Positions 4,119 through 36,738 of a stretch of 64,000 bases of DNA are shown in pieces. The notes beneath the pieces were generated by a model, which saw only the letters and a list, made by a program, of their open reading frames with translations, had not been told where the DNA came from and made no database searches. Positions within the stretch are counted from its first letter, which is position 1. Every line of letters begins with the position of its first letter. Origin of the DNA: an uncultured bacterium (GTDB lineage Bacteria > Poribacteria > WGA-4E > WGA-3G); NCBI GenBank assembly GCA_964593655.1, contig CAZQIP010000206.1, forward strand, positions 16,963 to 80,962, in the 5' to 3' direction. The position numbers were made by a program, and so were the translations under genes.

Positions 4119-6158
4119 ATGTTATATCGTCCGTCAGATGGAATCACAGCAATGAAAACTGCACTTCTTCTATCATTTTTTACAGTATCTGTTGCCTTCG
4201 GTGCGGTTGAGATTGAGGATGTGACGTTTGGATTCAACGAGGGTTACAAGACAGGCACATGGGCACCTCTGACTATCACCGTTGGGGGTCAAGATGCGTT
4301 TGCTACACCTATTGGCGTTCCTGGTCAACAGATAGCTGAGACCTATCTGGCAGTAGAAGTTAGAAGTTTTTCTTCAAACACACCTACCCAGCGGTATGCG
4401 ACTCCACTCACTGGATTACGACAGAAAAATTTCTATATCTATTGCCCGAAAAATGCTACGGAGCTCGTCATTGAACTCGTACCTGCCCCACAGTCAGAGA
4501 ACACAGTGTCTCAGGATAAAGTGCGACGCGTGATGCAGGAGATGGCTTTACCGACACCTCTTGCCCGCAAAGACTTCCTCGTATTGGTGTTGGCACCGAG
4601 CGGTGATAAACTAAAACGATTTATTGACCAAAAGCAGTTAGCGGCTCATGATGATGCACAGGTACATGTGGCGTACCGTTCAAACCCGACATCCTTGCCA
4701 CGCGACTGGATAGGTTATAGTGCAGTGGATGTCCTCGTTATTCGCGAGATAGTCCTGAAACGTATCTCTAAGCCCCAACAAACAGCGATGCTTGATTGGG
4801 TACAACGTGGCGGTACGCTTATTGTCTCTGGTGGCAGTAACTATAAATATCTGCGCCACAGTTTTTTAGTACCGTTCTTTCCAGTCGAATTGAAAAAACC
4901 AGAACAAACAGAGCAGATCCCGGCTGTCTTACATGAACAACTCGGTTTTCGGAGCTTCGGTAGCAACAGTAACCCGTTTGAACGCATCCCGTTTTCTCCA
5001 CAACTTGGATGTGAAACGCTCATCGGAACAGACGATCAGATCTACGTCGCGAAGCGGAACTTTGGAGACGGTCAGATCCTGTGTCTTGCGTTTGATTACA
5101 ATGCCATGCCCTTTTCGGAACAACAAGTGGGTGAAACATTCTGGAACGGATTACTGAGCAGGCACGGTAAATCTCCGCGGCATATCACAGACCGGTTTGC
5201 CCTTGCGCTCCAACATGAGGAGAAGATTTACCAACAATTTTTATCAACTTCTGTCAAAGCCGGATCGACTCAGGTGCCGCTCATTAAACTGCTGGCTATA
5301 GTTTTACCAATATATCTGCTGAGTTTTGGTGGTTTCTTCTTTTACTTTGGGAGGTCTCTGAAGTCACGCGATCAGGATCATCGTGATGGCGTGCTTCAGC
5401 AGAAGCGAAAGGCAGGCATCTATTGGATAGGAGGATTTCTCTTTGTTCTACTCTCATTGAGTACAATTGCAGTCGCGAGAAATGTGTTGCCGAATAGCGT
5501 TACGGCGGATCAACTGTCAATTTTGTCAGTCTATCGTGATCGGAATCGTGTGCACTTGCGAAGCTACGTCGCTATTAGGGCTACAGCACACGCTGAAACA
5601 TCCATTGATTTCACAAAAGGGAACTTTATTCGTCATCAGGAAACTGAGAGCCCTCAAAAGATCGGAACGTTGGTTCAGAATTCAAGTGTTCAATTACGAG
5701 GCTTGCCCGTGGAGCCGTGGCATCCTACGACCTATGTGCAAGAAACATTTTTAGATGCTCAGGAACTTCCGCGTATCCTTGAAAACGCGTGGCACGTTAC
5801 AGGTAAAGAGATGACTTACTTAGGTAACGTCACACTTGATAGTGCGTTGGAATCTGAACTTTCTCTGAAGTCACACCATCAGGATCATCGTGATGGTGTG
5901 CTTCAGCCAACAGCCGTCCTCCGGCGGCGAGTAACAGCTGCATTACCACTTGACGAAGGTCTGCGCGGCAAGCGGAAGTGGTTTGCACAAATTCTACGAC
6001 AGGAGCAAGTCTTGCGCCATCTGGCGGAAGAGAGAGGCGCAGTATCGCCACCTTATCTGATCGGATGGACTTCTCAGAATTTTACGGACACGGTAGTAAC
6101 AGGAAATGTTAACACAAATAATGAAACTTTAGTGATTTTACCTATCACTGGGCTTTAA
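4119..6158 (+). CDS. Hypothetical exported/membrane protein (signal peptide, central TM segments), carrying two in-frame palindromic insert elements
   Basis: 679-aa ORF. Likely start ATG 4152 (MKTALLLSFFTVSVAFGA signal). Hydrophobic segments LIKLLAIVLPIYLLSFGGFFFYF and IYWIGGFLFVLLSLSTIAV. No family recognised with confidence. Confidence 0.6.
   Translation: MLYRPSDGITAMKTALLLSFFTVSVAFGAVEIEDVTFGFNEGYKTGTWAPLTITVGGQDAFATPIGVPGQQIAETYLAVEVRSFSSNTPTQRYATPLTGLRQKNFYIYCPKNATELVIELVPAPQSENTVSQDKVRRVMQEMALPTPLARKDFLVLVLAPSGDKLKRFIDQKQLAAHDDAQVHVAYRSNPTSLPRDWIGYSAVDVLVIREIVLKRISKPQQTAMLDWVQRGGTLIVSGGSNYKYLRHSFLVPFFPVELKKPEQTEQIPAVLHEQLGFRSFGSNSNPFERIPFSPQLGCETLIGTDDQIYVAKRNFGDGQILCLAFDYNAMPFSEQQVGETFWNGLLSRHGKSPRHITDRFALALQHEEKIYQQFLSTSVKAGSTQVPLIKLLAIVLPIYLLSFGGFFFYFGRSLKSRDQDHRDGVLQQKRKAGIYWIGGFLFVLLSLSTIAVARNVLPNSVTADQLSILSVYRDRNRVHLRSYVAIRATAHAETSIDFTKGNFIRHQETESPQKIGTLVQNSSVQLRGLPVEPWHPTTYVQETFLDAQELPRILENAWHVTGKEMTYLGNVTLDSALESELSLKSHHQDHRDGVLQPTAVLRRRVTAALPLDEGLRGKRKWFAQILRQEQVLRHLAEERGAVSPPYLIGWTSQNFTDTVVTGNVNTNNETLVILPITGL
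5358..5399. repeat. 42-nt palindromic element, copy 1, in-frame inside the CDS
   Basis: CTGAAG-t-CACGCGATCA-ggatcatcg-TGATGGCGTG-CTTCAG; translated LKSRDQDHRDGVLQ. Confidence 0.8.
5865..5906. repeat. 42-nt palindromic element, copy 2, in-frame inside the CDS
   Basis: CTGAAG-t-CACACCATCA-ggatcatcg-TGATGGTGTG-CTTCAG (perfect 6+10 bp stem); translated LKSHHQDHRDGVLQ. Confidence 0.8.
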
Positions 6159-6218
6159 AGAACAATGTGATTCCCGGATTAGATGTTCCTCGCGGTACTT
6201 GTTAAACAGAGGTGAACT

Positions 6219-7151
6219 ATGGATGTGCTATCGCTCGGTATTTATGTCGTTGATGTGCTTGGACGGCCGATAGATCAGTTCCCGGAAAAAGGCAAATTAG
6301 CACTCTTTGATGAACTCGAAATCCATACGGGAGGTTGTGCGAACAACACAGCCCTTGCGCTCGCGCGTTTGGGTATCTCTGCGGGTGCGATGGGTAAAAT
6401 CGGCACTGATCCTTTTGGCGATCTGATTCTGCAAACACTTACCGACAACGGCGTTGATGTGGCTGGCATGCGACAAGATATCGACGTTAGCACCTCGTTT
6501 ACATTTGTCGCGATTGCTTCCGATGGCGAACGGACTTTCTATCACTACATCGGTGCGAACGGTGAGCTCTGTGAAGCAGACCTGAATTGGGAACTTATTC
6601 AAACCACCAAAATTTTGCATATCGCCGGTGCGCTTGTCATGCCACGTTTTGACGGTGCGCCGATGGCAAACGTTCTTCGAGAAGCGAAAAGGCTGGGTAT
6701 AACCACCTCACTCGATACAGCATACGATGCCACCGGAAAATGGATGGAGACGTTAGAACCGTGTTTGCACCATGTAGACATCTTTATGCCAAGCATCGTT
6801 GAAGCGCAACAACTCACCGGTATGTCTGAACACCGTGAAATCGCACAATTTTTTCGGAATAACTACAATATCCAAACTATCGCCATTAAGATGGGTGAAA
6901 ACGGGAGTTATATTTCCACACCAGAAACAGAACTCTCTGTGCCTGCATATCCGGTCAATATCGTTGACGCAACGGGTGCAGGTGACGCTTATGTCGCTGG
7001 ATTTCTCGCTGGGACTATCATGGGTTGGGACTTAGAAGCGACTGCGAAATTGGCATCCGCGACGGGTGCAGCATGCGTCACTGCTATCGGGACCACTGCG
7101 GGAATCCAGAATCTTGAAGAGACTCTAAAAATTAGCCATCAGAGAAATTAG
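6219..7151 (+). CDS. PfkB-family carbohydrate kinase (ribokinase/KDG-kinase-like)
   Basis: 310 aa. GGCANNTALALARLG N-terminal motif and DATGAGDAYVAGFLAG ATP/anion-hole motif. Confidence 0.85.
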   Translation: MDVLSLGIYVVDVLGRPIDQFPEKGKLALFDELEIHTGGCANNTALALARLGISAGAMGKIGTDPFGDLILQTLTDNGVDVAGMRQDIDVSTSFTFVAIASDGERTFYHYIGANGELCEADLNWELIQTTKILHIAGALVMPRFDGAPMANVLREAKRLGITTSLDTAYDATGKWMETLEPCLHHVDIFMPSIVEAQQLTGMSEHREIAQFFRNNYNIQTIAIKMGENGSYISTPETELSVPAYPVNIVDATGAGDAYVAGFLAGTIMGWDLEATAKLASATGAACVTAIGTTAGIQNLEETLKISHQRN

Positions 7152-17941: not shown

Positions 17942-19570
17942 TTAGAAAACAGACATTTTGACGCTGAAAGCGTTACGGCTCCCTTTCACACTGTATGGAC
18001 TCCCGGTAATACACAACCGAAATAGCTTGCCTTGGTCAAAAAGGTATGTGATTTTTCCCGTTTTTTCGGGACCAACATGCCACTTTGTGGCGAGGGCACC
18101 GAGAGCTTCCACATAAGCATCGCCGTGTTGACGCTCCCAGACAGAGGCAGGTACGCCTTCAGGGGCTTTTTCTGTTGGGAGGTTTTTGTCACCATCAAAC
18201 AGGTAGAAAGTTCCTTCCGCCTTACCTCTCCCAACTCCGATATCCAGTGTAAGGGTGCCGCCGTCTTCAAACACCGTGGTATCAATCTCTACGACGGTGT
18301 AGTTTTGATGCGGTACCATAGGAGTCTGAAAAGTGTCCATTACCTCCACTGAGGAGCACACAGGGGTCAGGACAATTCTACCCAAACCAGGGCGTTTTCC
18401 TTCTAAGGCTCCCGATAAAAATAGACGGTACCCTTCCGCCTGGGAGTGCCCCTTATCTATGCAATCTCCGAAGAACCTATTGGCATCTTGCCTACCCATC
18501 ACTTCAAGTTCAGGCGAGATAACCAAACAATCTACCGGCGCGTTTAGATGCCATCCGTCTATGACAGCTTGTGCCAACGGATGTGTTGTGTCAACCCCCT
18601 TGAAACCGTGCTGGATTCTCTGGGCAAGATAGGTACGTTTGTTTGGCGTGCGCCCGAAGGCAACATTGGACACCCATGTGTTGATAAAGTGTTCGTTCAA
18701 GAATTTTATATTTTGTTCGTCGGAAAGAGCACCTGACCTCAGGGCTTTACCACTCCCTCAGCAAGTTTCATCTGCCAAAGGTCCATCTATGGAAATGGCG
18801 TGAATCGGTTTCTGCTGTGCTTGTGCTAATTCCAACGCCGCCTCCATCGGTACCCAATCAATTTGTTCCGATTTGTAAAACTGACAGTTTAGCAGACGCT
18901 CGGCTTCCTCCTGCGTGATGGCAGTAGAACCGCTCATTGCACTTTCCAAGTGGGTTGTGATGTCTTGCAAAACGGCTTCGGCACCAGTACGGAGTTCCAT
19001 TTGTGCACAGAAACCGGTATCCATAATCCAGTTGGAGTCATCCCAACTCTTTTCGTCCTGCCAGCCAACCTCAAAGTTCACGGGACCTTCTGGAACGCGC
19101 ATCTGAAAGAACGAGACTGTCTCTTCTGGACGGTTGATAATGAGATGTCCGGCAAACTGTGAAGGCGTGAACCAGCCATCACCTAACTTGAATTCTACGT
19201 GAATGCGAAACACAATGTCCGCGAATTCATCAGTGTAGGCACGTAAACAAGCCCACAACCCGGGATCCCCGTAACCGCGCATATCCAAATGCGGGTTTGG
19301 GTGAAGTTGCCTCAGTAGTTCAAGGACCCTTGTTTGTTCAATCTGCCAGGGAGTTCCAACAGACACCGCTTCGTCTGGTAAAAACGCGCGAAAAATGGAT
19401 GCGGAATACTCTTTTTCTGGCGCAGCGACTCGGAGATTCGCTAACTCGTTCCACTCATACTCCACGTGGTAGTTAGCTAAGGTATATTCAATCGGAGCGA
19501 TGAAACCTTTGATGGGAATTTTGGTATCACCATCAATATTAAGCGCGATTTTGTTGGGGGTCGGTTTCAT
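17942..19570 (-). CDS. Candidate selenoprotein: 542-aa protein with thioredoxin-fold domain, TGA (18758-18760) read as Sec in motif C-U-G-S-G
   Basis: Track ORFs 18758..19570 and 17942..18700 are in the same frame, separated only by TGA plus 19 open codons. The joined sequence is ...QQKPIHAISIDGPLADETC-U-GSGKALRSGALSDEQNIKFLNEHFINTWV... If the TGA is a true stop, these are two hypothetical genes. Confidence 0.5.
18728..18748 (-). promoter_or_regulatory. SECIS-like hairpin candidate downstream of UGA 18760-18758
   Basis: mRNA AGC-CCUG-[AGGU]-CAGG-(U)-GCU: 7 bp with one bulged U, apical loop AGGU about 20 nt after the UGA. Confidence 0.35.
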
Positions 19571-19786: not shown

Positions 19787-21232
19787 TTAAAAGATCCCGG
19801 CAATTGGTTCACCCTTCACCAATTCGCGGGGTTGATCTAAATGGTTGTAGACGATCGTATGCGGATCAATACCAAGGGTGTGGTAGACCGTAGCGAGGAT
19901 GTCGCGTGGATGCACCGGATTCTCAAGCGGTGTTGAACCTGTCGCATCGGACTTGCCGTAAACCTGTCCGCCTTTGACACCTGCGCCTGCGATTAACCCT
20001 GTGTAGCAATAGGGCCAGTGGTCGCGTCCATCAGGTGCGTTGCTATTACCGGAGGTGCTAATACCCATCCGTGGCGAGCGTCCGAATTCACCGATCGCCA
20101 AGACAAGTGTATCCTCTAACATCCCGCGCTGATCCAAGTCTTCGAGCAGTGAGGAGACAGCACTATCTAACTTCGGACAGTGGAGGTTCTTCAATGGGCC
20201 GAAGTTTGTTGCGTGCGTATCCCACGCAGTCGTGTTCGGATCGCCATTTGCGACTGAGGGCCAGTTCACCTGAACGAAGCGCGTGCCAGCCTCGACCAAT
20301 CGGCGAGCAAGGAGTGCGCTCTGCCCGAAGGTGTGTCTACCATAGCGATCACGCATCTCATCGGGTTCTTGTGACAGATCGAAAGCATTACGTGCCCGCT
20401 GCGACAAGATGAGATTGTACGCCTTCTCATAATACTCGTTCAAGGCATAGGAGTCCGCCACCTTATCAATTTCGGGCATACCGGCGTTAATCGTCTCAAG
20501 GAGGTTTTTCCGGCGTTTCAAGCGCACGGGTGGCACCTCTGGCCGCAAGCTTAAGTCATCAAGGTTAATATCTTGATTCGGATCCTGGAAGAGGAAGTAC
20601 GGATCGTAGGCTCTCCCTAAGAAACCGGCGTTTCCGCCTTTACCGATGATATTACTCTCTTGCATCGGACGCGGAAGTTGTACTGCCGCGAGCATCGGTT
20701 CATCGGGGGGTCGGTAATTTGAGATATGCGCTGCGGCATTCGGATGGTCGGCAGGCGAAGGTGGATCAAGTTGCCCTGAAGGGGCGACCTTATCCGGTGT
20801 TTCGCCAGTAACCATTTGATACATCGCAGCCGTGTGGTTGAAAAGCCCTGCCGGTGTGTAGCTGACCGAACGGATCAAGCAGGCTTTGTCCATCTGCTGT
20901 GCCAAACGCGGCATTGTCTCAGATAACTGAATCCCCGGCACGTTGGTCGGGATCGGTTTGAATTCACCGCGAATATTTGAAGGTGCATCGGGTTTTGGGT
21001 CCCAGATATCGAGGTGGCTAGGCCCGCCTTGTAAAAAGAGAAGGATGACCGAGTTGGCTTTTCCCCATCCGTTTAGCGGTTTAGCGGGGTCAACTGCCGT
21101 ATTCGCGTTCGCTTGGAGTGACAATACCTGTGGCAGACTAATGCCGAGCATCGCCGCACCACCGACACGTAGAAATTCACGACGTGAGAACCCGTCACAC
21201 AAGCGTCCGGGTAATTGTGGTAACGATAACAT
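19787..21232 (-). CDS. DUF1501-domain protein (sulfatase-like fold), Tat signal
   Basis: 481 aa. SRREFLRVGGAAMLG leader; FLQGGPSHLDIWDPKP and GRDHWPYCYTGLIAGAGVKGG motifs typical of DUF1501. Confidence 0.85.
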   Translation of the reverse strand: MLSLPQLPGRLCDGFSRREFLRVGGAAMLGISLPQVLSLQANANTAVDPAKPLNGWGKANSVILLFLQGGPSHLDIWDPKPDAPSNIRGEFKPIPTNVPGIQLSETMPRLAQQMDKACLIRSVSYTPAGLFNHTAAMYQMVTGETPDKVAPSGQLDPPSPADHPNAAAHISNYRPPDEPMLAAVQLPRPMQESNIIGKGGNAGFLGRAYDPYFLFQDPNQDINLDDLSLRPEVPPVRLKRRKNLLETINAGMPEIDKVADSYALNEYYEKAYNLILSQRARNAFDLSQEPDEMRDRYGRHTFGQSALLARRLVEAGTRFVQVNWPSVANGDPNTTAWDTHATNFGPLKNLHCPKLDSAVSSLLEDLDQRGMLEDTLVLAIGEFGRSPRMGISTSGNSNAPDGRDHWPYCYTGLIAGAGVKGGQVYGKSDATGSTPLENPVHPRDILATVYHTLGIDPHTIVYNHLDQPRELVKGEPIAGIF

Positions 21233-24143: not shown

Positions 24144-25064
24144 TCACGAAAGATCCCAAAGCAAGACAGAGTTATCTTCACTTGCGCTTGCGAGTAAACT
24201 ACCGTCAGGTGCATAAGCGACGTTCCTGACACTACCGGTATGCCCTGTGAGTGTGTTTTTCGATTTGCCTGCCTTCGCATCCCATAGACGCACTGTACCA
24301 TCACTACTACTACTTGCGAGCGTTGCACCATCAGGAGAATACGCAACACTCCAGACATAACCTCTATGTCCTGTGAGTGTGTCCTTGGTTTCACCTGTTA
24401 TCACATCCCAGAGACGTACTGTGCGGTCGGTACTCCCACTGGCAAGGGTTTCGCCATTGGGAGCATAGACAGCAGCATTGACAATATGCTTATGTCCCGC
24501 GAGTGCCGCTTTGTGCTGTCCAGTGGCAGCATCCCATAGTAGGACGGTATCATCTCCACTGCCGGCTGCGATCGTGCTTCCATCAGGAGAATATGTGACA
24601 GACCTAATAGAGAACTGGTCCAGTGTGAGGGTATTTTTAACTTCCCCTGTGCTTACATCCCACAAACGTACCGTGCCATCAGGACTTCCACTCGCGATCG
24701 TGTTCCCATCAGGAGAAAAGGTAACGCTTCTAACAGCGTCAGTATGTCCAGTGAGCGTTGCTGTCGGAGCCCCGCTGGTTGCATCCCACAGCACAACGGT
24801 GTTGTCAATACTTCCACTTGCGATTGCCCCGCCATCAGGTGAAAAGGCGACACACCTGACGTATTCTTTGTGCTCTACAAGTAGATTGAGCCCTGTTGCA
24901 CTCTCTACATCGTAGACCCAAACGCCAATGTCGCAGGCGACTGCGAGTTGTGTCCCGTCCGGTGAGAAGGCTATATCTCCAGTTAGGTTTCCTTGATCAA
25001 GTCGTGCTTTGACTCCTTCAGGTAGATTCAATTGTATTTCTTCTCCAACTTTTAGATTTTCCAA
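24144..25064 (-). CDS. WD40-repeat protein (7 units), short paralog lacking signal peptide, dockerin repeats and CTD
   Basis: 306 aa. LNLPEGVKARLDQGNLTGDIAFSPDG box, then xSPDGxxIASGSxDxTVRLWD units. The ORF starts at TTG 25064, so the start is uncertain. Confidence 0.75.
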   Translation of the reverse strand: MENLKVGEEIQLNLPEGVKARLDQGNLTGDIAFSPDGTQLAVACDIGVWVYDVESATGLNLLVEHKEYVRCVAFSPDGGAIASGSIDNTVVLWDATSGAPTATLTGHTDAVRSVTFSPDGNTIASGSPDGTVRLWDVSTGEVKNTLTLDQFSIRSVTYSPDGSTIAAGSGDDTVLLWDAATGQHKAALAGHKHIVNAAVYAPNGETLASGSTDRTVRLWDVITGETKDTLTGHRGYVWSVAYSPDGATLASSSSDGTVRLWDAKAGKSKNTLTGHTGSVRNVAYAPDGSLLASASEDNSVLLWDLS

Positions 25065-26428: not shown

Positions 26429-27196
26429 CTACCCCACGCGGAGTCGTTCGTTGCCCATTTCGACGAAACCTGGTTCAATTTCAAACCCGATGAAATCTCG
26501 CTGATGTCGTTGACACACCACAGGACAAGTCCCTACACCAGCAAAAGGATCAAGAACCAGATCGCCGGGTGATGAACTTGCTAATACAATTCGCTCGATT
26601 AACTTCTCTGGTTTCTGGATCGTATTGAGTGCCTTCTTGTTCACTAATTCCTTCGACTTATAGGTTAGCTGTTTTATATCACCCCAGACATCTCCGGGAT
26701 TTTTTCCTTTCGGATTGTATTTCGTCTTTCCAAACTTGCCATTTGTCACGGATGGCACCTTTTCACACCGAAGTCGATGCTCTAACTCAACAAGTTGCGA
26801 AACTCTAATAGCATCCAAGTTATAACACTGCGGCTTTTTGCCTTTGATGAAATAGCAGATAATGTCGTAGTTATTGGTGTAATTGATGCGTCCCTGTGCG
26901 AGTCTGCTCGGTTGATACCATACAATTTTTGAACGGAGGTTCAAAAACTTTCGATAATCTATAAAGTCAATACAATCGGGTTTACCGAACAGATAAAGTG
27001 CGCCACCATCTTTCAGCTTCGGCGTGAACTTTTTAATGAGTGCAAGATTAAATTCCTGAATTGAGGAAATTTCATCCCACGAATTCTCTGTTACACCATA
27101 CGGTCCGTCGCATACAATCAGATCTACCGAAGCATCTTGGATCTCTTTCAGTAGTGTAAATGTGTCCCCACAATGAATGGTGTTGCGTTCAAGCAT
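26429..27196 (-). CDS. DNA methyltransferase, beta-class N6-adenine/N4-cytosine (N6_N4_Mtase family), no cognate nuclease seen
   Basis: 255 aa. Motif IV DLIVCDGPYG is N-terminal and motif I VLDPFAGVGT is C-terminal, which is the beta-class order. Confidence 0.85.
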   Translation of the reverse strand: MLERNTIHCGDTFTLLKEIQDASVDLIVCDGPYGVTENSWDEISSIQEFNLALIKKFTPKLKDGGALYLFGKPDCIDFIDYRKFLNLRSKIVWYQPSRLAQGRINYTNNYDIICYFIKGKKPQCYNLDAIRVSQLVELEHRLRCEKVPSVTNGKFGKTKYNPKGKNPGDVWGDIKQLTYKSKELVNKKALNTIQKPEKLIERIVLASSSPGDLVLDPFAGVGTCPVVCQRHQRDFIGFEIEPGFVEMGNERLRVG

Positions 27197-27220: not shown

Positions 27221-28696
27221 TTACATCGGTCCCACCCGCCGCGGTCCTATGTCTATGGCAAACATAGACGCGTCGAAATTCTGTTTCAATAGTTCCAGTT
27301 TGATGTCCTGTTTATCGGGTGCATGCCAGAGATTGTTAAACTCGTCGGGGTCATCGATTAAGTCGTAGAGTTCTCCCTCCTCGTGTCCGTGATAGACTAC
27401 CAATTTGTAACGTTTATCCCGATACATTGTTGCATAAGAGTGGTCGCGGCCATTGACAGCATCATAATATTCACACCGGACAAAGTCGCGGTGCTGGTTT
27501 GCGTCCGCCTCACCGCGAAGGATAGGCAGTAGCGATCGTCCATGCATGCCTTCAGGGGGTGTTAAGCCCGCTAATTCCAAAAGTGTCGGTGCTTTGTCAA
27601 CGAGTTCAACGAGTGCGTTGCTTTTGAGACCGTTCACGAACTGTCCTTGCCATGCAAAAATCAACGGCACTCTGACTAAGCCTTCGTAAAATCGGCACCC
27701 TTTCTGAATCAATCCGTGGTCGCCGAGCGTTTCTCCGTGGTCACTCGTGAAAATAATGACGGTATTTTCGCGTTGTCCTGTTTCTTCAAGTGTTTCAAGC
27801 ATTCTACCCAACTGCTCGTCAATGAGTTGGATCATCGCGTAATAAGCGGCTTTGAGCGTCTTGGCATCCGTTGCCCCGACTGTATTCGTCTCTTGGCGCG
27901 GGGTCTGCCCCTTCCCAGTAACGGGTGGGGACCCCGGTAAAATCGGGCTGCGGATGTCCAATTCATCAGGTGTTCGGACTTTGGATTGAAAATCGACTAC
28001 TTGTAAACGGGTCTGCTGTTCGAGATCGCTATTTCGGAAGAGCGGTTCTGGCATCTCCGCTGGATTAAATTGCTCTCGGTACGTCTGTGGCGGATTGAAG
28101 GGTGGATGCGGATCGTAGATATTGACGCTCGCCAGCCACGGGCCATCGCGTTCTTCACGGATGAATTCGATTGTCTTTTCCGCGCACCATGTCGTCTGAT
28201 GCAATTCCGGTGGCACGCCTTCTGGATTTCGATTCAATTCGCCTAAAATATAACCTTTCGAGCGTACCCAATCCGCGTAGTCATGCCCTTGTTCCCAATC
28301 GTCACGTGGCGCATGGCTGTACTGCCAATAGCGGTATCCGTCGTTTGTACGTGGTTCTATTCGACGGTAAGCACTCGCAAGATGGAGTTTGCCAATCAGA
28401 CCGCAATCATAGCCGATGTCTGCGAGGGTCCGCGTCACAAGCGGATACGCGTCAGGAAAGAAATCGTTTCCGTTACGATTTGCGTGCGTTGCGTTTGGGT
28501 ACATACCTGTGAGAAAACTCGCCCGACTCGGCGTACAGATGGGGCTTTGGCAGTAGGCATGCGTGAACGCGACACCGTCTTCCACAAGGCTATCAATGTT
28601 CGGCGTTGATACGTACGGGTTACCCAACGCCCCGATTGTATCGTAACGCTGCTGATCTGTGCAAACCCAGAGAATATTGGGTGCTTTAAGAGCCAT
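27221..28696 (-). CDS. Sulfatase (formylglycine-dependent)
   Basis: 491 aa. ILWVCTDQQR, CQSPICTPSRASFLTGMYP, FTSDHGE. Confidence 0.9.
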   Translation of the reverse strand: MALKAPNILWVCTDQQRYDTIGALGNPYVSTPNIDSLVEDGVAFTHAYCQSPICTPSRASFLTGMYPNATHANRNGNDFFPDAYPLVTRTLADIGYDCGLIGKLHLASAYRRIEPRTNDGYRYWQYSHAPRDDWEQGHDYADWVRSKGYILGELNRNPEGVPPELHQTTWCAEKTIEFIREERDGPWLASVNIYDPHPPFNPPQTYREQFNPAEMPEPLFRNSDLEQQTRLQVVDFQSKVRTPDELDIRSPILPGSPPVTGKGQTPRQETNTVGATDAKTLKAAYYAMIQLIDEQLGRMLETLEETGQRENTVIIFTSDHGETLGDHGLIQKGCRFYEGLVRVPLIFAWQGQFVNGLKSNALVELVDKAPTLLELAGLTPPEGMHGRSLLPILRGEADANQHRDFVRCEYYDAVNGRDHSYATMYRDKRYKLVVYHGHEEGELYDLIDDPDEFNNLWHAPDKQDIKLELLKQNFDASMFAIDIGPRRVGPM

Positions 28697-28717
28697 TCAT
28701 CAGCCTCTTCGTGTGTG

Positions 28718-30316
28718 CTATTGAGTCGTTGCGCTAAACCCAGACGCTTTAACGATGTTCGCGAGGTCAGTGGCAGTCGCCGTGTTTTTTCGGACTTTAA
28801 TGACGGCTTGATCGGGTAGCGAAACTTCGACACTGATAACGCTCTGGTGTTGTGTAAGTGCACCCTGCACTTTCGCGACACACGCCCCTCACGTCATGCC
28901 TGACACGACCAGTGTGACATCTTCACTCCCGGCAGGTTCGATCGGGACAGACATAAAGGCGTTCAGTAGTTTCCCAGAAGCGTCAAATATCCGAATTTTA
29001 CCGTCGAAACCGCCTGTAGCGAGTTGTGTGCCATCAGGATGGAATGAAACTGCGAAAACACCGACTGCATCGCCTTGCATGCTCGCTAAACGCTTCCCAT
29101 CCGCTATGTTATAGATACGCGCTTCGCCGCCTGCACTGCCGGTCGCGAACCGGGTGCCATCCGCAGAAAACGCTACCGCTTCAATTGTCCCCGACTGTGC
29201 TTCGTAGGCTTGGATAAGGTTAAAGTCTGTATTGCCAACATCTCTTCGGATTTCACGGAAAATTTTGTAGAGCCGTGGTATCCGATCCTCGCCAGCACTC
29301 AAAACTTGGTCTTCAGTGGGATGTCGTGCGATGGTGTTGATTTCACCGTAGCCTTTGTTACTGGAGTTGACATCATCCACAAAAGAGCCTGTGTCTACCT
29401 CAACCAATTTGAGTGCAGTATCACGTCCACAACTCACAAAATGCGAGCCGTCAACAGAAAAAACAGTGCCGAAAACCCAATCGCTGTGGTTATCAAATTT
29501 AATGAGCTCTTTTTCATTTTCAACGGATAGGACACGTACTGTCTGATCTGAGCATCCAAAAGCGACGCGACTTGCATCTGGTGAGAAAGAAAGCCCGTAA
29601 ATCGTATCATAACTGGAGCGCATCGCTTTGATGAGGGTGTCGGTTGCAGTATCCCAGAGCTGCACTTCGCCAAATTGTGCGGCGGATCCACCTGCCATGC
29701 CTAATATTTTGCCATCCGCTGTATATGTCAGCGACTCTATTCGACGTGCTTTACCGACCAATCGCGCTTTGAGTTTATAATTCGCCGTGTCATACAATAA
29801 AACTTCTCGGACCCCTGATACTGCAAGCGTGTTGCCATCGGGTGAGTATGCCAGCGCAGTAACCACCGGCGGTACGGTGTAAACCGGATAGTCTCCCTCC
29901 GCCATATCATCGACTTCGGCGGGTGTATCATCGGGCGCGCCTTCAAGAATCCACCGTCGGAAGAGTTCGACCTCTTCGGCAGAGAGCGGTTCCATATTTT
30001 GTGGCATTGCGGGTTCATCGCCGGAGATGAGCTTAATGATGAGACTGTCATCAGGTTTCCCCGGGACGATTGTTGCATCGCCCGCCATCCCGCCTTGTTT
30101 GAGATCGGTATAGGTTGTGACAATCAAGCCGCCGTTTGGATCGCCTGGGTGATGGCATCCTTGACAACTCCGCTTGAGAATTGGGACGATCTGTGAGTGG
30201 TAACTGACGGGTGCCTCTGCGCCATGATTATCCGCTGTTACAAACGGAACCCACGCTACAAGGCAGAGTAAATACACCGCTAAATGGATAGTAAACCTTG
30301 ATCGCGATATTTTCAT
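28718..30316 (-). CDS. Cytochrome c (PSCyt-type CxxCH) + WD40 propeller protein, extended through TGA 28889-28891 (candidate Sec) into a C-terminal HMA metal-binding domain
   Basis: ORF 28889..30316 carries CQGCHHPG and WD40 units and ends VTLVVSGMT-TGA. The next 56 in-frame codons, GACVAKVQGALTQHQSVISVEVSLPDQAVIKVRKNTATATDLANIVKASGFSATTQ-TAG, complete an HMA fold with GMT-U-GAC. The 28889..30316 core is safe (0.85); the extension is less certain. Confidence 0.6.
28851..28882 (-). promoter_or_regulatory. SECIS-like hairpin candidate downstream of UGA 28891-28889
   Basis: mRNA UGUGU-cgcga-AAGUGCA-[GGG]-UGCACUU-ACACA: 5 bp + 7 bp stems, apical loop GGG 24-26 nt after the UGA. Confidence 0.45.
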
Positions 30317-32646: not shown

Positions 32647-35600
32647 ATGAGTTTGATACGTAATATGAATTTTGGCGCAGTTTGCAAACCGAAACTCGCT
32701 GTGCAAAGACTTATCACAGTATGTCTACTTGGCATCGTGTTCTTTATTAACGGCTGTGTTAAGATGGAGGCAACACGCAAAGCGGATTGGGAGACACATT
32801 TCACAGATATCCACTTTGTCAACCACAAACAGGGATGGATTGTCGGAGAGAGCGGTCTGATAATTCATACGGTAGATGGTGGAAAGACCTGGAAACAACA
32901 GGAAGTCGATACAACAAGTCCTGGATTTCGCATGCCTGATGCCTCGTTAGATTTCAAAGCGGTTTATTTTACAAACGCGCAGAATGGATGGGCAGTCGGC
33001 GATGAAGGATTAGTTGCAGCAACTGACGATGGCGGCAGACACTGGTCGTTGCAAAAGAGTGGCAGCTCCGCGATGCTCCTTGATGTCTTTTTTGCGAACT
33101 CAAAAGAAGGTTGGATTGTAGGCGAAGATTCGGATGTGCTCTATACCGAAAACGGTGGAAAAGAATGGAAACGCTACGAGTATGTTAGCGAATTTATGCT
33201 CAACGGGGTCTGGTTCGTTGATGATTCAAGCGGATGGGTTGTGGGTACACACGATAGAATTTTTCACACCAAGACGGGTGGCGAATCGTGGCGGGAACAG
33301 AGCAACCGCTTTGAAGGCGAACGCGATCGGATGATCAATGATAATAAACAGGTATTTTTCATCAGCGACAATGAAGGTTGGATCGTTGGCAGTGACGGGT
33401 CCATCTTCCATACGACGACTGGCGGTGCTAATTGGGAGCGTCAAGACAGTCGTATCCCGCTGATTAATGGGCACGTCCGAGATACGATCAATAGCATCCA
33501 TTTTACAGACGAAAACTATGGGGTCGCCGTGGCGGATGTCGGCTTTATTACGCGTACTGAGGATGGTGGCGACAATTGGCAATTGATGGAGAGCGGCACC
33601 GAAAACAATTTGACAGGCATCCAGTTCACCACGCCAACAGAGGCGTGGGCGGTTGGATGGTACGGTACGATTCTGCATACGACAGATGCCGGTGCGACCT
33701 GGGAGATGACGAGCGGTACGACAGCGAACGATTTACAGAATGTGCAGTTTACGGATGCCAACCGTGCGATTGCAGTGGGCAGACGTGGCACAATGGCGAT
33801 GAGCAACGACGGCGGACAGACATGGAACGAAATTGAGACAGATATCTGGGACGGCATTTGGAACATCTATTTCGCGACTGACAAGCACGGTTGGGCAGTC
33901 GGTGAACGCGGGCTTATTGTCCATACGAATGACGGCGGCATGAATTGGGAACGTCAGCGCGGTCCCACTGCCTTTACACTCCGTTCTGTCCACTTTGTTA
34001 GCCCTCAGGTTGGTTGGATTGTAGGCGATATTGGCAGTATTATACATACGATTGATGGTGGCAAAACATGGCTCCCACAAACCGCAACTGGGGATTTCTT
34101 CTCGCTCATGCTAAAGGGCGTATTTTTTCTTGATGAAAAGAAAGGTTGGGCTATTGGATGGCCCGGGGTTTGCCTCGCAACAGAAGACGGTGGTTTGACC
34201 TGGAACCAACAGACGACTGGTACCTTCAATGAACTCTACGCTGTCTATTTCACAGATGAAAACACTGGATGGATCGTTGGACAGTTCGGCGAGATTTTAC
34301 ATACAAAAAACGGCGGGAAAAAGTGGATTTTCCAACGCAGTGGGACTCAAGAGAACCTGAATAAACTCTATTTTGCGGATACACAGCACGGTTTAATCGT
34401 CGGGGATAACGGCGTGATGCTTACCACAACCAGTGGCGGGAAAAAATGGGAAATGCAGGAGAGTGGTACTGACAATGACCTTTATGGCTTAGCCCTCTCG
34501 CCTGATGGCGTTGTCGCTGTCGGTAAAGGCGGGATTGCGATGCGGTATTCGGTTGAGGAGGCACAACTGCCTGCCAAGTTACCACCTGTTGCCGAAGCGT
34601 CTGAACTCGTCGCTGCCGAAGAAGAAACTCCGGTTGAACCCGTTGCTTACCATTGGGACATTATCCGTCAGGCGGCTTGGCGCACTGATTTTGCAGATAC
34701 GCACTTTGTAGATGCCCAAAACGGTTGGGCAGTCGGTTCCGGTGGTGTTATCGCCCGTACTATGGACGGCGGGAAAACGTGGCTACCGCAACATAGTGGT
34801 GTCAGTGAAAATCTGCGCGAAGTGGAATTCGTTGATGCAAAACATGGAAGAGTTCTCGGTTCTGGCACTTTACTCCAGACAGAAAATGGTGGCGAAACGT
34901 GGCAGCCGATCCTTCAAGCGACCAAACAAAACCTTCCTCGCGTTAGCACGATGCACTTCCTGAACGCCGAAGAGGGATGGCTTGGTGCCTCGATTGGGCA
35001 GACCTTGCATACTACTGATGGGGGCAAGACGTGGAAAGTCCAAAAAACCGGAACAACAACAGGAAACATCACCGATCTCCATTTCATCAATAGTCAAGTA
35101 GGGTGGGCAGTGACGCCGCAACGTCGAGACGGTGGATTTATCCTTCATACAGTTGACGGCGGGGACTACTGGAAAATTCAGGCGAAAACCAATCAACCCG
35201 GTATCGCTGTTCACTTTGCCGACGAAAACCGCGGTTGGGTAATCCTCGGTAACGGGAACTCTTTGTTGACTGAAGATGGTGGCGAAACATGGCAATTGAA
35301 GACCACGTCACAAAGCACACGCGGTTTACGACGTGTTACCTTCCGTTCGCATACCAAAGCGTGGGGACTGGGCGGCGGCGGTGCATATATCACCGAAGAC
35401 CAAGGGGTGAATTGGAAGGCTATCCCCGTCGCTACAAGAGACGAGATACTCGCCATGCGACAACCTGATCCAGAGATACCGGAAGAACCCGCGCCAGAAA
35501 CAGAAAAAGATGAATCGGAAGATGAGGTTGCTGAGGGACCCACGTTACAGTATGACGAGACACCGGAGGAAATACAAAATCGGCTTCGAGCAGAGAACCA

Positions 35601-36738
35601 ACGTGCGGGGCGTCTTGCACCTGAAGGGACACTCCCGCCTAATGCAGAGCGGGCAACGCCAGCATCCGCACAGCAACAACCCCCTCCACCACCAGAACCC
35701 AGAGGACGCAGGCGCGGTGGTCGCCGAATTGCGAGTGTGTATTTCCTTGATACAGAACACGCATGGGCAGTTGGCAGTGCTGGTAGCATTTACTACTCTG
35801 CAGATGGTGGGAAGACATGGGAACGTCAACTCGGTGAACAAGAACGCAGCGATTTCCGAGAGGTGCTTTTCTACGATGACAAAAACGGTTGGATCGCAGG
35901 TGACGGCGGTATGTTATTGGAAACTCAAGACGGTGGAGAAACATGGCAGAAACTCCGAAGTCAAACGCGTCAACGCTTCATCGGTATACACTTCGCAAGC
36001 TTAGAACCGAAATGGGGATGGGCAATGCAACGTGATGGGACTGTGCTGTACACTACAGACGGCAACATTTGGACAGCAGGAGATACACCTGAACGTCCGC
36101 CGTTTATGGAAGACGATCCGCCCGGTAATTTCTCGCTAAACGACGTTGCTTTTGGTAAATTCTCTGAAGGCTGGGCAGTCGGACAATTCGGGGACATTAT
36201 CCACAATAAAGATGGCGGTCCTACATGGACCCTTCAACGGACGACTGCAAACGATAGGCTTACGAGTGTGGATATGCAATTCGCACCGCTCGGTTGGGCA
36301 GTCGGGCAAGGTGGTGTCACCCAGCGAACTATTAATGGTGGTCAATATTGGCGGCTGCATGAGACGAAGACCAACTACAATCTCAACGCTGTTTCATTTA
36401 TTAGCAAGCGGAAAGGATGGGCAGCGGGTGAGGCAGGCATCGTCCTCAGGACAATTGATGGTGGCTTTACGTGGGAACCCATATTGACGGGTGTTCCCAA
36501 AGATCTTCACGGCATTGTTTCGCTCTCGGAACAGGAGATTTACGCTGTTGGCAATGAAGGAACGATTGTCCGTTCAACCGACGGTGGTGAGACGTGGGAA
36601 CAAGAACATACCGATATTGATAATAACTTGTATGTTATTACGCGTTCTAAGGACGGTAAAGCCTTGTGGGTCGTTGGACAGTGGGGTGTTGTGCTCCGTC
36701 GGAAGTTAGAAACGCAGGAGAAGATGTCAATGCGATAA
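32647..36738 (+). CDS. Giant Ycf48/BNR-like multi-beta-propeller lipoprotein
   Basis: 1363 aa. GGAGGGG RBS; lipobox-like VFFINGC. About 26 blades with the (D/N)GGxTW signature in three blocks, separated by an acidic linker and a Pro/Glu/Arg-rich low-complexity linker (QQQPPPPPEPRGRRRGGRR). Confidence 0.85.
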   Translation: MSLIRNMNFGAVCKPKLAVQRLITVCLLGIVFFINGCVKMEATRKADWETHFTDIHFVNHKQGWIVGESGLIIHTVDGGKTWKQQEVDTTSPGFRMPDASLDFKAVYFTNAQNGWAVGDEGLVAATDDGGRHWSLQKSGSSAMLLDVFFANSKEGWIVGEDSDVLYTENGGKEWKRYEYVSEFMLNGVWFVDDSSGWVVGTHDRIFHTKTGGESWREQSNRFEGERDRMINDNKQVFFISDNEGWIVGSDGSIFHTTTGGANWERQDSRIPLINGHVRDTINSIHFTDENYGVAVADVGFITRTEDGGDNWQLMESGTENNLTGIQFTTPTEAWAVGWYGTILHTTDAGATWEMTSGTTANDLQNVQFTDANRAIAVGRRGTMAMSNDGGQTWNEIETDIWDGIWNIYFATDKHGWAVGERGLIVHTNDGGMNWERQRGPTAFTLRSVHFVSPQVGWIVGDIGSIIHTIDGGKTWLPQTATGDFFSLMLKGVFFLDEKKGWAIGWPGVCLATEDGGLTWNQQTTGTFNELYAVYFTDENTGWIVGQFGEILHTKNGGKKWIFQRSGTQENLNKLYFADTQHGLIVGDNGVMLTTTSGGKKWEMQESGTDNDLYGLALSPDGVVAVGKGGIAMRYSVEEAQLPAKLPPVAEASELVAAEEETPVEPVAYHWDIIRQAAWRTDFADTHFVDAQNGWAVGSGGVIARTMDGGKTWLPQHSGVSENLREVEFVDAKHGRVLGSGTLLQTENGGETWQPILQATKQNLPRVSTMHFLNAEEGWLGASIGQTLHTTDGGKTWKVQKTGTTTGNITDLHFINSQVGWAVTPQRRDGGFILHTVDGGDYWKIQAKTNQPGIAVHFADENRGWVILGNGNSLLTEDGGETWQLKTTSQSTRGLRRVTFRSHTKAWGLGGGGAYITEDQGVNWKAIPVATRDEILAMRQPDPEIPEEPAPETEKDESEDEVAEGPTLQYDETPEEIQNRLRAENQRAGRLAPEGTLPPNAERATPASAQQQPPPPPEPRGRRRGGRRIASVYFLDTEHAWAVGSAGSIYYSADGGKTWERQLGEQERSDFREVLFYDDKNGWIAGDGGMLLETQDGGETWQKLRSQTRQRFIGIHFASLEPKWGWAMQRDGTVLYTTDGNIWTAGDTPERPPFMEDDPPGNFSLNDVAFGKFSEGWAVGQFGDIIHNKDGGPTWTLQRTTANDRLTSVDMQFAPLGWAVGQGGVTQRTINGGQYWRLHETKTNYNLNAVSFISKRKGWAAGEAGIVLRTIDGGFTWEPILTGVPKDLHGIVSLSEQEIYAVGNEGTIVRSTDGGETWEQEHTDIDNNLYVITRSKDGKALWVVGQWGVVLRRKLETQEKMSMR

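Follow-up and report, generated by a model that had tools for sequence, protein, structure and literature searches.

The 64,000-nucleotide stretch analyzed here (the window; contig CAZQIP010000206.1 of assembly GCA_964593655.1, positions 16,963 to 80,962) comes from an uncultured bacterium of the phylum Poribacteria and carries, on its minus strand, a candidate selenoprotein gene that is interrupted by an in-frame TGA codon. The open reading frame (ORF) 28889..30316 has 475 codons and ends in ...DVTLVVSGMT, which is followed by TGA at 28889-28891. Beyond the TGA, the frame remains open for 56 sense codons (GACVAKVQGALTQHQSVISVEVSLPDQAVIKVRKNTATATDLANIVKASGFSATTQ), an extension that includes the tail peptide VQGALTQHQSVISVEVSLPDQAVIK, before it reaches a TAG at 28718-28720. 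With this extension, only 21 nucleotides remain before the ATG of a sulfatase gene at 28696; without it, a gap of 192 nucleotides is otherwise unexplained. The ORF end, the continuation, the TAG, the gap, and the spacing had all been given in a preliminary description of this DNA, and all match the sequence. In public annotation (GenBank, ENA), the gene product is a “hypothetical protein” of 475 amino acids ending in GMT. Some genomes also annotate a separate “hypothetical protein” of 50 to 55 amino acids, whose start is a GTG located inside a hairpin that resembles a selenocysteine insertion sequence (SECIS) and is described below.

We scanned species-representative genomes and found 80 Poribacteria loci with DNA that matches residues 1 to 532 at 70 to 96% protein identity. 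Together with one contig from a read archive, these species representatives form the set of 81 loci used in our comparisons. The identical codon is TGA in all 81 loci, and it is TGC or TGT in none. The tail is uninterrupted in every locus, extending over 56 to 58 codons with the signature of a heavy-metal-associated (HMA) domain and with no stop codon or frameshift. None of these orthologs ends at the TGA without HMA-coding sequence downstream: in all 81, the TGA is accompanied by an intact, selected tail. The assemblies are independent and originate from different hosts and projects, and several of the loci are in multi-megabase records titled “chromosome.” When the joined protein was used as the query, the 120 closest clusters (71 to 94% identity) were nearly all about 475 amino acids long, covering only 89% of the query, and the ending ...GMT occurred in 118; where named, they are from Candidatus Poribacteria. 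A search of 5.8 billion clusters with the tail only retrieved just ten Poribacteria fragments of 50 to 55 amino acids. Because TGA is the ordinary stop codon of 8 other large ORFs among the 40 in the window, the genetic code is standard.

The tail sequences retain a record of translation. Pairwise Nei-Gojobori comparisons of the codon alignment yielded a ratio of nonsynonymous to synonymous substitution rates (dN/dS) of 0.13 for the tail (0.12 after removal of the hairpin codons) versus 0.07 for the region upstream of the TGA, with dS > 1. By this measure, the HMA tail is under purifying selection. In the first five codons after the TGA (+1 to +5), the amino acids are conserved and the variation is synonymous. 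For example, Cys+3 is invariant in 81 of 81 loci but is encoded by TGT in 49 and by TGC in 32, while Val+4, likewise invariant in all 81, uses four different codons. Given that these residues are conserved while their synonymous positions change freely, the frame is translated from the TGA onward. Judged from this substitution pattern, the comparison shows that ribosomes translate through the UGA in the same frame.

The translated tail reads as a metal-binding domain. In a profile search with the last 70 amino acids, in which U was replaced by C and the Pfam gathering threshold was applied, the tail matched the Pfam HMA family PF00403 over profile positions 2 to 61 of 62 (38.6 bits, cutoff 24.8), and the alignment placed the TGA on the first Cys of the GMTCxxC motif. 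The proposal of a complete HMA domain with the TGA at its first Cys, put forward in the preliminary description, is thus borne out. The motif GMT-U-x-x-C is present in 81 of 81 loci, and its second Cys is invariant. The tail also aligns residue for residue with the GMTCxSC metal-binding domains of solved structures (ATP7A/B, CopA, CopZ, MerP), with PDB matches that include 1afi (MerP), 1cpz (CopZ), and the metal-binding domains of ATP7A/B. Its scores against more specific models are below the curated cutoffs: 35.6 bits for NCBIfam NF041115 (cutoff 95), although aligned over the whole model; 30.6 bits for the MerP model TIGR02052 (cutoff 92.55); and 38 to 39 bits for the CopZ models NF033794, NF033795, and NF047957 (cutoffs 85 to 95). 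On these profile scores, the tail is a domain of the HMA superfamily and not a member of the CopZ, MerP, or NF041115 families.

Immediately downstream of the TGA, selection appears to act on the nucleotides as well as on the protein. Counting the T of TGA as 0, positions +21 to +33 have the sequence GTGCAGGNTGCAC in nearly every one of the 77 distinct sequences, and this near-invariance includes the third codon positions +23, +26, +29, and +32. We measured synonymous codon entropy over 439 degenerate alignment columns and found that the window of codons +6 to +10 has the lowest value of any five-codon window in the gene (0.019 bits, against 1.17 on average over the gene). Each of the eight windows with the smallest values shares codons with it, and outside this region no window falls below 0.68. 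The constrained nucleotides correspond to a hairpin, GUGCA-GGN-UGCAC. What RNAalifold keeps is a stem of only 7 bp (alignment columns 20 to 26 with 30 to 36) and a 3-nucleotide GGN loop, and 98% of the cells in this stem are paired across 69 distinct sequences. The rare changes in the stem preserve pairing, being G-U wobbles and one replacement of A-U by G-C. The GGN loop is located 26 to 28 nucleotides from the U of the UGA (24 to 26 nucleotides after the A), and its Gs are at nucleotides 27 and 28, counting the U as 1. In the aligned sequences, these data show strong nucleotide-level constraint on an RNA element 19 to 35 nucleotides downstream of the UGA.

A SECIS-type element had been predicted at this site, and the constraint on the upper stem and loop agrees with that prediction. 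The more elaborate hairpin that had been drawn survives only in part. The minimum free energy fold of the single sequence is exactly as drawn (UGUGU/ACACA, a 5-nucleotide bulge, AAGUGCA/UGCACUU, and a GGG loop), and the upper stem and GGN loop are conserved, but the lower stem is not. We rejected UGUGU/ACACA as a conserved feature, since it is broken in about 28 of the 69 distinct sequences (about 40%): the lower helix is 80% paired, with pair 11-40 broken in 28 of 69 sequences and pair 12-39 in 27 of 69. Similar to the SECIS element of Escherichia coli fdhF, the Poribacteria hairpin lies inside the coding region, directly 3′ of the UGA, and has G at the first two loop positions. In contrast to fdhF, its conserved part consists of 7 bp and a 3-nucleotide loop, with no conserved bulged U or lower stem. 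The critical loop bases of fdhF are at approximately +23/+24, and bSECISearch allows a spacing of 16 to 37 nucleotides, within which the spacing of the GGN loop falls. The loop also agrees with the bacterial SECIS consensus, which has a G as the first or the second nucleotide in the apical loop (PMC13582414). We suggest that the 7-bp hairpin with its GGN loop fits a minimal bacterial SECIS element.

Taken with the fixed TGA and the translated HMA tail, the hairpin leads us to propose that the UGA is decoded as selenocysteine (Sec), a reading to which we assign a probability of about 0.88. Several observations weigh against it. Homologs of SelA, SelB, and SelD were detected neither in the window nor in about 770 kb of orthologous flanks (tblastn, E. 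coli queries, E ≤ 1e−3), and ARAGORN found no tRNA of any kind, hence no tRNA-Sec nearby, in the window and 60 orthologous loci. The conserved hairpin is short (7 bp), with a loop of only 3 nucleotides, and a search of positions 28600 to 29000 against Rfam gave no match at E-values up to 10. The single sequence does not fold more stably than expected by chance (z = −0.8; 35 of 200 shuffled sequences fold equally well), the shuffle controls are unremarkable, and the case for the hairpin is one of invariance, not of covariation. No genes for metal handling are found in the neighborhood, which comprises a sulfatase, a DNA methylase, YceI, a BNR-repeat protein, a DUF1501 protein, and a hypothetical protein. 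Finally, a Cys-form ortholog was not found among the 81 loci, the 120 close clusters, or the results of the tail-only search; the usual pairing of Sec and Cys forms is seen in the wider HMA superfamily, which has Cys at this column, and not among orthologs.

Covariation statistics are uninformative in this case because the stem hardly varies, and we regard the hairpin as above chance because all 81 loci carry the TGA and synonymous variation over the upper stem is near zero. For the machinery, the literature provides indirect support: in their Table S4, Slaby et al. 2017 (PMC5649159) list COG1921 (SelA), COG3276 (SelB), and COG0709 (SelD) in bin70, bin44, and WGA-3G, which are all three of the Poribacteria genomes covered by that table. 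WGA-3G is itself one of our loci (L035) and carries the TGA-HMA gene. Moreover, Sec-type group 4 hydrogenases from Poribacteria were reported in a 2026 survey.

The same data bear on other explanations of the in-frame stop. The TGA could have arisen through faulty sequencing or assembly or through a recent pseudogenizing mutation, or the tail could be the decaying remnant of an HMA fusion. Within a single window, nothing beyond the in-frame stop itself speaks for these possibilities, and they are refuted by the recurrence of the same TGA in 80 independent assemblies, which excludes error, and by an intact tail with a dN/dS of 0.13 at dS > 1; we consider their probability negligible. A hardly credible alternative is that the TGA is a true stop and that the tail is a separate small gene, encoding a 50-amino-acid protein from the invariant GTG at 28868-28870, seven codons past the TGA, with the invariant nucleotides serving as its translation-initiation region and not as a SECIS element. 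Gene callers do report ORFs of 50 to 55 amino acids here in several Poribacteria, the invariant block begins at the GTG, and a G-rich run (GAGGGG) precedes it. Yet a product that starts there (VQGAL...) would be without strand beta-1 and the whole GMT-x-x-x-C loop, while the Pfam HMA match requires residues on either side of the TGA. The small gene also fails to account for codons +1 to +5, upstream of the GTG, where amino acid conservation accompanied by free synonymous change can be explained only by translation in this frame, or for the extension of the conserved block 14 nucleotides past the GTG as a perfect inverted repeat.

Alternatively, the UGA might be recoded to cysteine or another standard residue, through a SelB-dependent Cys-charged tRNA of the tRNA-ReC type or through near-cognate read-through, in which case the product would carry an ordinary Cys-HMA domain. 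tRNA-ReC-like tRNAs for SECIS-dependent recoding of UGA have been discussed (PMC13582414), and what our data establish is read-through and an RNA element, but not which residue is inserted. We nevertheless think this very unlikely. If the product contained Cys, at least a few of the 81 lineages, whose synonymous sites are saturated, would be expected to have TGC or TGT, and neither is seen; it also makes little sense to maintain expensive recoding for an amino acid that already has codons. Near-cognate insertion of Trp at position 476 would destroy the metal site, and the SelA and SelD COGs, which are reported in Poribacteria, are needed only for making Sec.

Under the Sec reading, the gene would encode one exported protein of 532 residues composed of a signal peptide, a PSCyt1 c-type heme domain with the motif CQGCH, a WD40 propeller, and a C-terminal HMA domain (Table 1). 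The N-terminal part matches PSCyt1 PF07635 (38.1 bits, cutoff 22) and includes the CxxCH motif. Attachment of c-type heme occurs outside the cytoplasm. Because the protein combines a signal peptide-like N terminus with a c-type heme motif, we infer that it is exported to the periplasm, where it is probably located, as is MerP.

Table 1. Coordinates of the candidate selenoprotein gene, its predicted domains and RNA element, and the adjacent sulfatase gene
Feature	Position in window	Strand	Evidence
Full candidate selenoprotein gene, 532 codons including proposed Sec-476, stop TAG 28718-28720	28718..30316	-	Sequence, 81-locus comparison, annotation pattern
Signal peptide-like segment, residues 1-28 (MKISRSRF-TIHLAVYLLCLVAWVPFV-TA/D)	30233..30316	-	Read by eye from sequence
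PSCyt1 (planctomycete cytochrome c) domain	30002..30166	-	PF07635 38.1 bits, cutoff 22
Heme-binding motif CQGCH, residues 51-55	30152-30166	-	CQGCHH invariant in 81/81 orthologs
WD40 beta-propeller, approximately residues 151-455	28952..29866	-	PF00400 108.5 bits and many propeller families
In-frame TGA, proposed Sec-476, first Cys position of GMT-U-x-x-C	28889..28891	-	TGA in 81/81 loci
HMA domain, residues 469-527, across the TGA	28736..28912	-	PF00403 38.6 bits; solved-structure alignments; tail dN/dS 0.13
SECIS-like hairpin, stem AAGUGCA/UGCACUU (7 bp), GGN apical loop 28863-28865	28856..28872	-	Conservation, folding
Extended hairpin of the preliminary description, outer limits; UGUGU 28878-28882 with ACACA 28851-28855	28851..28882	-	Local minimum free energy fold only, not conserved in family
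Sulfatase gene, co-oriented, downstream, start 21 nucleotides past the TAG; context only	27221..28696	-	PF00884 166 bits

We hypothesize that the hairpin would recruit SelB and Sec-tRNASec to a ribosome paused at the UGA, and that the insertion of Sec at codon 476 would complete a GMT-U-x-x-C metal-binding loop. By analogy with the chemistry of HMA domains, MerP, and CopZ, the Sec-Cys pair may serve as a periplasmic binding site for a soft metal ion such as Cu(I) or Hg(II). A low-pKa selenolate at the exposed first ligand position could provide tighter binding or faster exchange and could make oxidation easier to reverse, and the HMA domain might, as a conjecture, cooperate with the heme domain. 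Termination at the UGA would instead yield a 475-amino-acid product, which resembles the HMA-less PSCyt1-WD40 proteins of other organisms. Any specific metal function of the Sec-HMA domain is much less certain than the decoding as Sec. One could go further and picture the Sec-HMA tail as the active part of a hitherto undescribed periplasmic machine that depends on selenium and is specific to sponge-symbiotic Poribacteria, a machine in which the heme exchanges electrons with a metal or metalloid bound at the Sec-Cys site, the propeller serves as a scaffold, and the UGA acts as a selenium-dependent switch between a 475-amino-acid “ancestral-type” form and a 532-amino-acid metal-handling form; we offer this picture as speculation that is more likely to be wrong than right by a wide measure.

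Selenocysteine in HMA domains is not in itself new. Sec has been recorded in MerP and in a UxxC cation-transporting ATPase, with 1 or 2 sequences each (GOS table; PMC2398784), and the table of a 2022 review lists a ZntA-type ATPase (UxxC) and a putative mercuric reductase MerA (UxxU) (PMC9312934). NCBIfam NF041115 describes a stand-alone UxxU “metal-binding (seleno)protein” of about 74 amino acids. The UxxC of the ATPase presumably lies in its HMA domain. The Poribacteria protein shares with these proteins a Sec that takes the place of a Cys in the GMTCxxC loop of the HMA fold, as well as the predicted mechanism, a UGA with a downstream hairpin. It differs from NF041115 in that its motif is UxxC rather than UxxU and its HMA domain is the C terminus of a 532-amino-acid protein, and from the known Sec-HMA proteins more generally in that the domain is neither stand-alone nor at the N terminus of a P-type ATPase or MerA. 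While the published Sec-HMA entries comprise few sequences, the Poribacteria form is fixed in at least 80 species. Compared to the Cys forms, the metallochaperones MerP (periplasmic) and CopZ/Atx1 (cytoplasmic), it has the same fold and GMTCxxC loop, and it has the periplasmic location in common with MerP. However, MerP and CopZ/Atx1 have a Cys-Cys pair, are free-standing or attached to transporters, and are encoded in metal-resistance operons, whereas in Poribacteria the first ligand would be Sec, the HMA domain is joined to a protein with a heme domain and a propeller, and the neighborhood contains no metal-resistance genes.

The remainder of the protein is related to a widespread family of PSCyt1-WD40 proteins from other organisms (PF07635 and PF00400, about 460 to 510 amino acids), with which it shares the N-terminal signal, CxxCH, and the propeller at 40 to 50% identity over residues of about 30 to 460. 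All representatives of this family that we examined end just past the last blade at a conserved motif (...F/V-P-V-P-I...), and the HMA motif is present in none of 150 PSCyt1-WD40 representatives (50% clustering level). In the Poribacteria protein, the equivalent of this ending, SVPIEP, directly precedes the added HMA domain and marks the fusion point. From this comparison, the Sec-HMA tail seems to have been added in the Poribacteria lineage alone. The preliminary description could not name the architecture. The PSCyt1-WD40-HMA fusion does appear to be new, but Sec within an HMA domain had already been recorded (MerP, ZntA-type ATPase, MerA, NF041115). In the searchable literature, we found no description of the cytochrome c-WD40 fusion, of its occurrence in Poribacteria, or of the fixation of Sec. 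What appears new is thus the cytochrome c-WD40 fusion and its phylum-wide fixation, and what is already known is Sec in HMA domains.

These results correct a systematic annotation error, in that the protein is truncated to 475 amino acids in every public Poribacteria genome examined and its HMA domain is either lost or annotated as a separate 50-amino-acid ORF. They also bring a well-supported family, present in no fewer than 80 species, into the small group of HMA selenoproteins with Sec as a metal ligand, whose previous members were known from one or two metagenomic reads. Sec appears to be fixed in this family, in which no Cys orthologs were found; this is uncommon for selenoproteins and suggests that selenium is genuinely required for function at this site. 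Together with a second candidate gene that has a Cys-Sec motif (see below) and the published Sec-type hydrogenase, the HMA gene suggests an uncatalogued selenoproteome in Poribacteria.

The gene order around the candidate is partly conserved. The sulfatase (PF00884, 166 bits) is directly downstream in 72 orthologous loci, YceI is upstream in 50 loci, and the hypothetical gene past the methylase is found in 70 loci. A gene for an N6/N4 DNA methylase (26429-27196, minus strand) separates the sulfatase from the conserved gene that follows and is present in only 48 orthologous loci; because of this lower count relative to the sulfatase (72) and the following hypothetical gene (70), it seems to be a variable insertion. 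Other genes of the window encode a DUF1501 protein (19787-21232, minus strand), a second, stand-alone WD40 propeller (24144-25064, minus strand), and a 1363-amino-acid BNR/Ycf48-like repeat protein (32647-36738, plus strand), surroundings that are typical of Poribacteria and Planctomycetes-like genomes. In one locus (L054, PYJE01000053.1), an over-long match at 5300 to 6400 might be taken for a tandem duplication, which we rejected: a run of N is followed by a duplicated 3′ end of the gene (...SGMT), an assembly artifact.

The second candidate selenoprotein gene of the window (17942-19570, minus strand) has a Cys-Sec (CU) motif, with a TGA at 18758-18760 and a TAA at 17942. Its ORF 18758..19570 (minus strand) ends in ...GPLADETC, followed by TGA, after which the frame runs on as GSGKALRSGALSDEQNIKFLNEHFINTWV... 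The protein family has no match in Pfam or NCBIfam. Cys-Sec dipeptides have been reported to be rare and linked to heavy-metal chemistry (bioRxiv 10.1101/2022.07.06.499078). If real, this gene would add a separate line of evidence for decoding of UGA as Sec in this genome. Within the family, more than 50 homolog clusters stop exactly at ...DE.C, and about 15 full-length homologs (about 555 amino acids) read through with Gly, or rarely Thr or Trp, at the TGA column. Five further loci (L084-L086, L088, and L089; 31 to 58% identity) all have the TGA, and after it come GSGK.LR and a conserved extension that stays open over a long distance; in these loci a hairpin 21 to 36 nucleotides downstream (GAGxxC-AGKU-GxxCUC) shows compensatory changes between loci.

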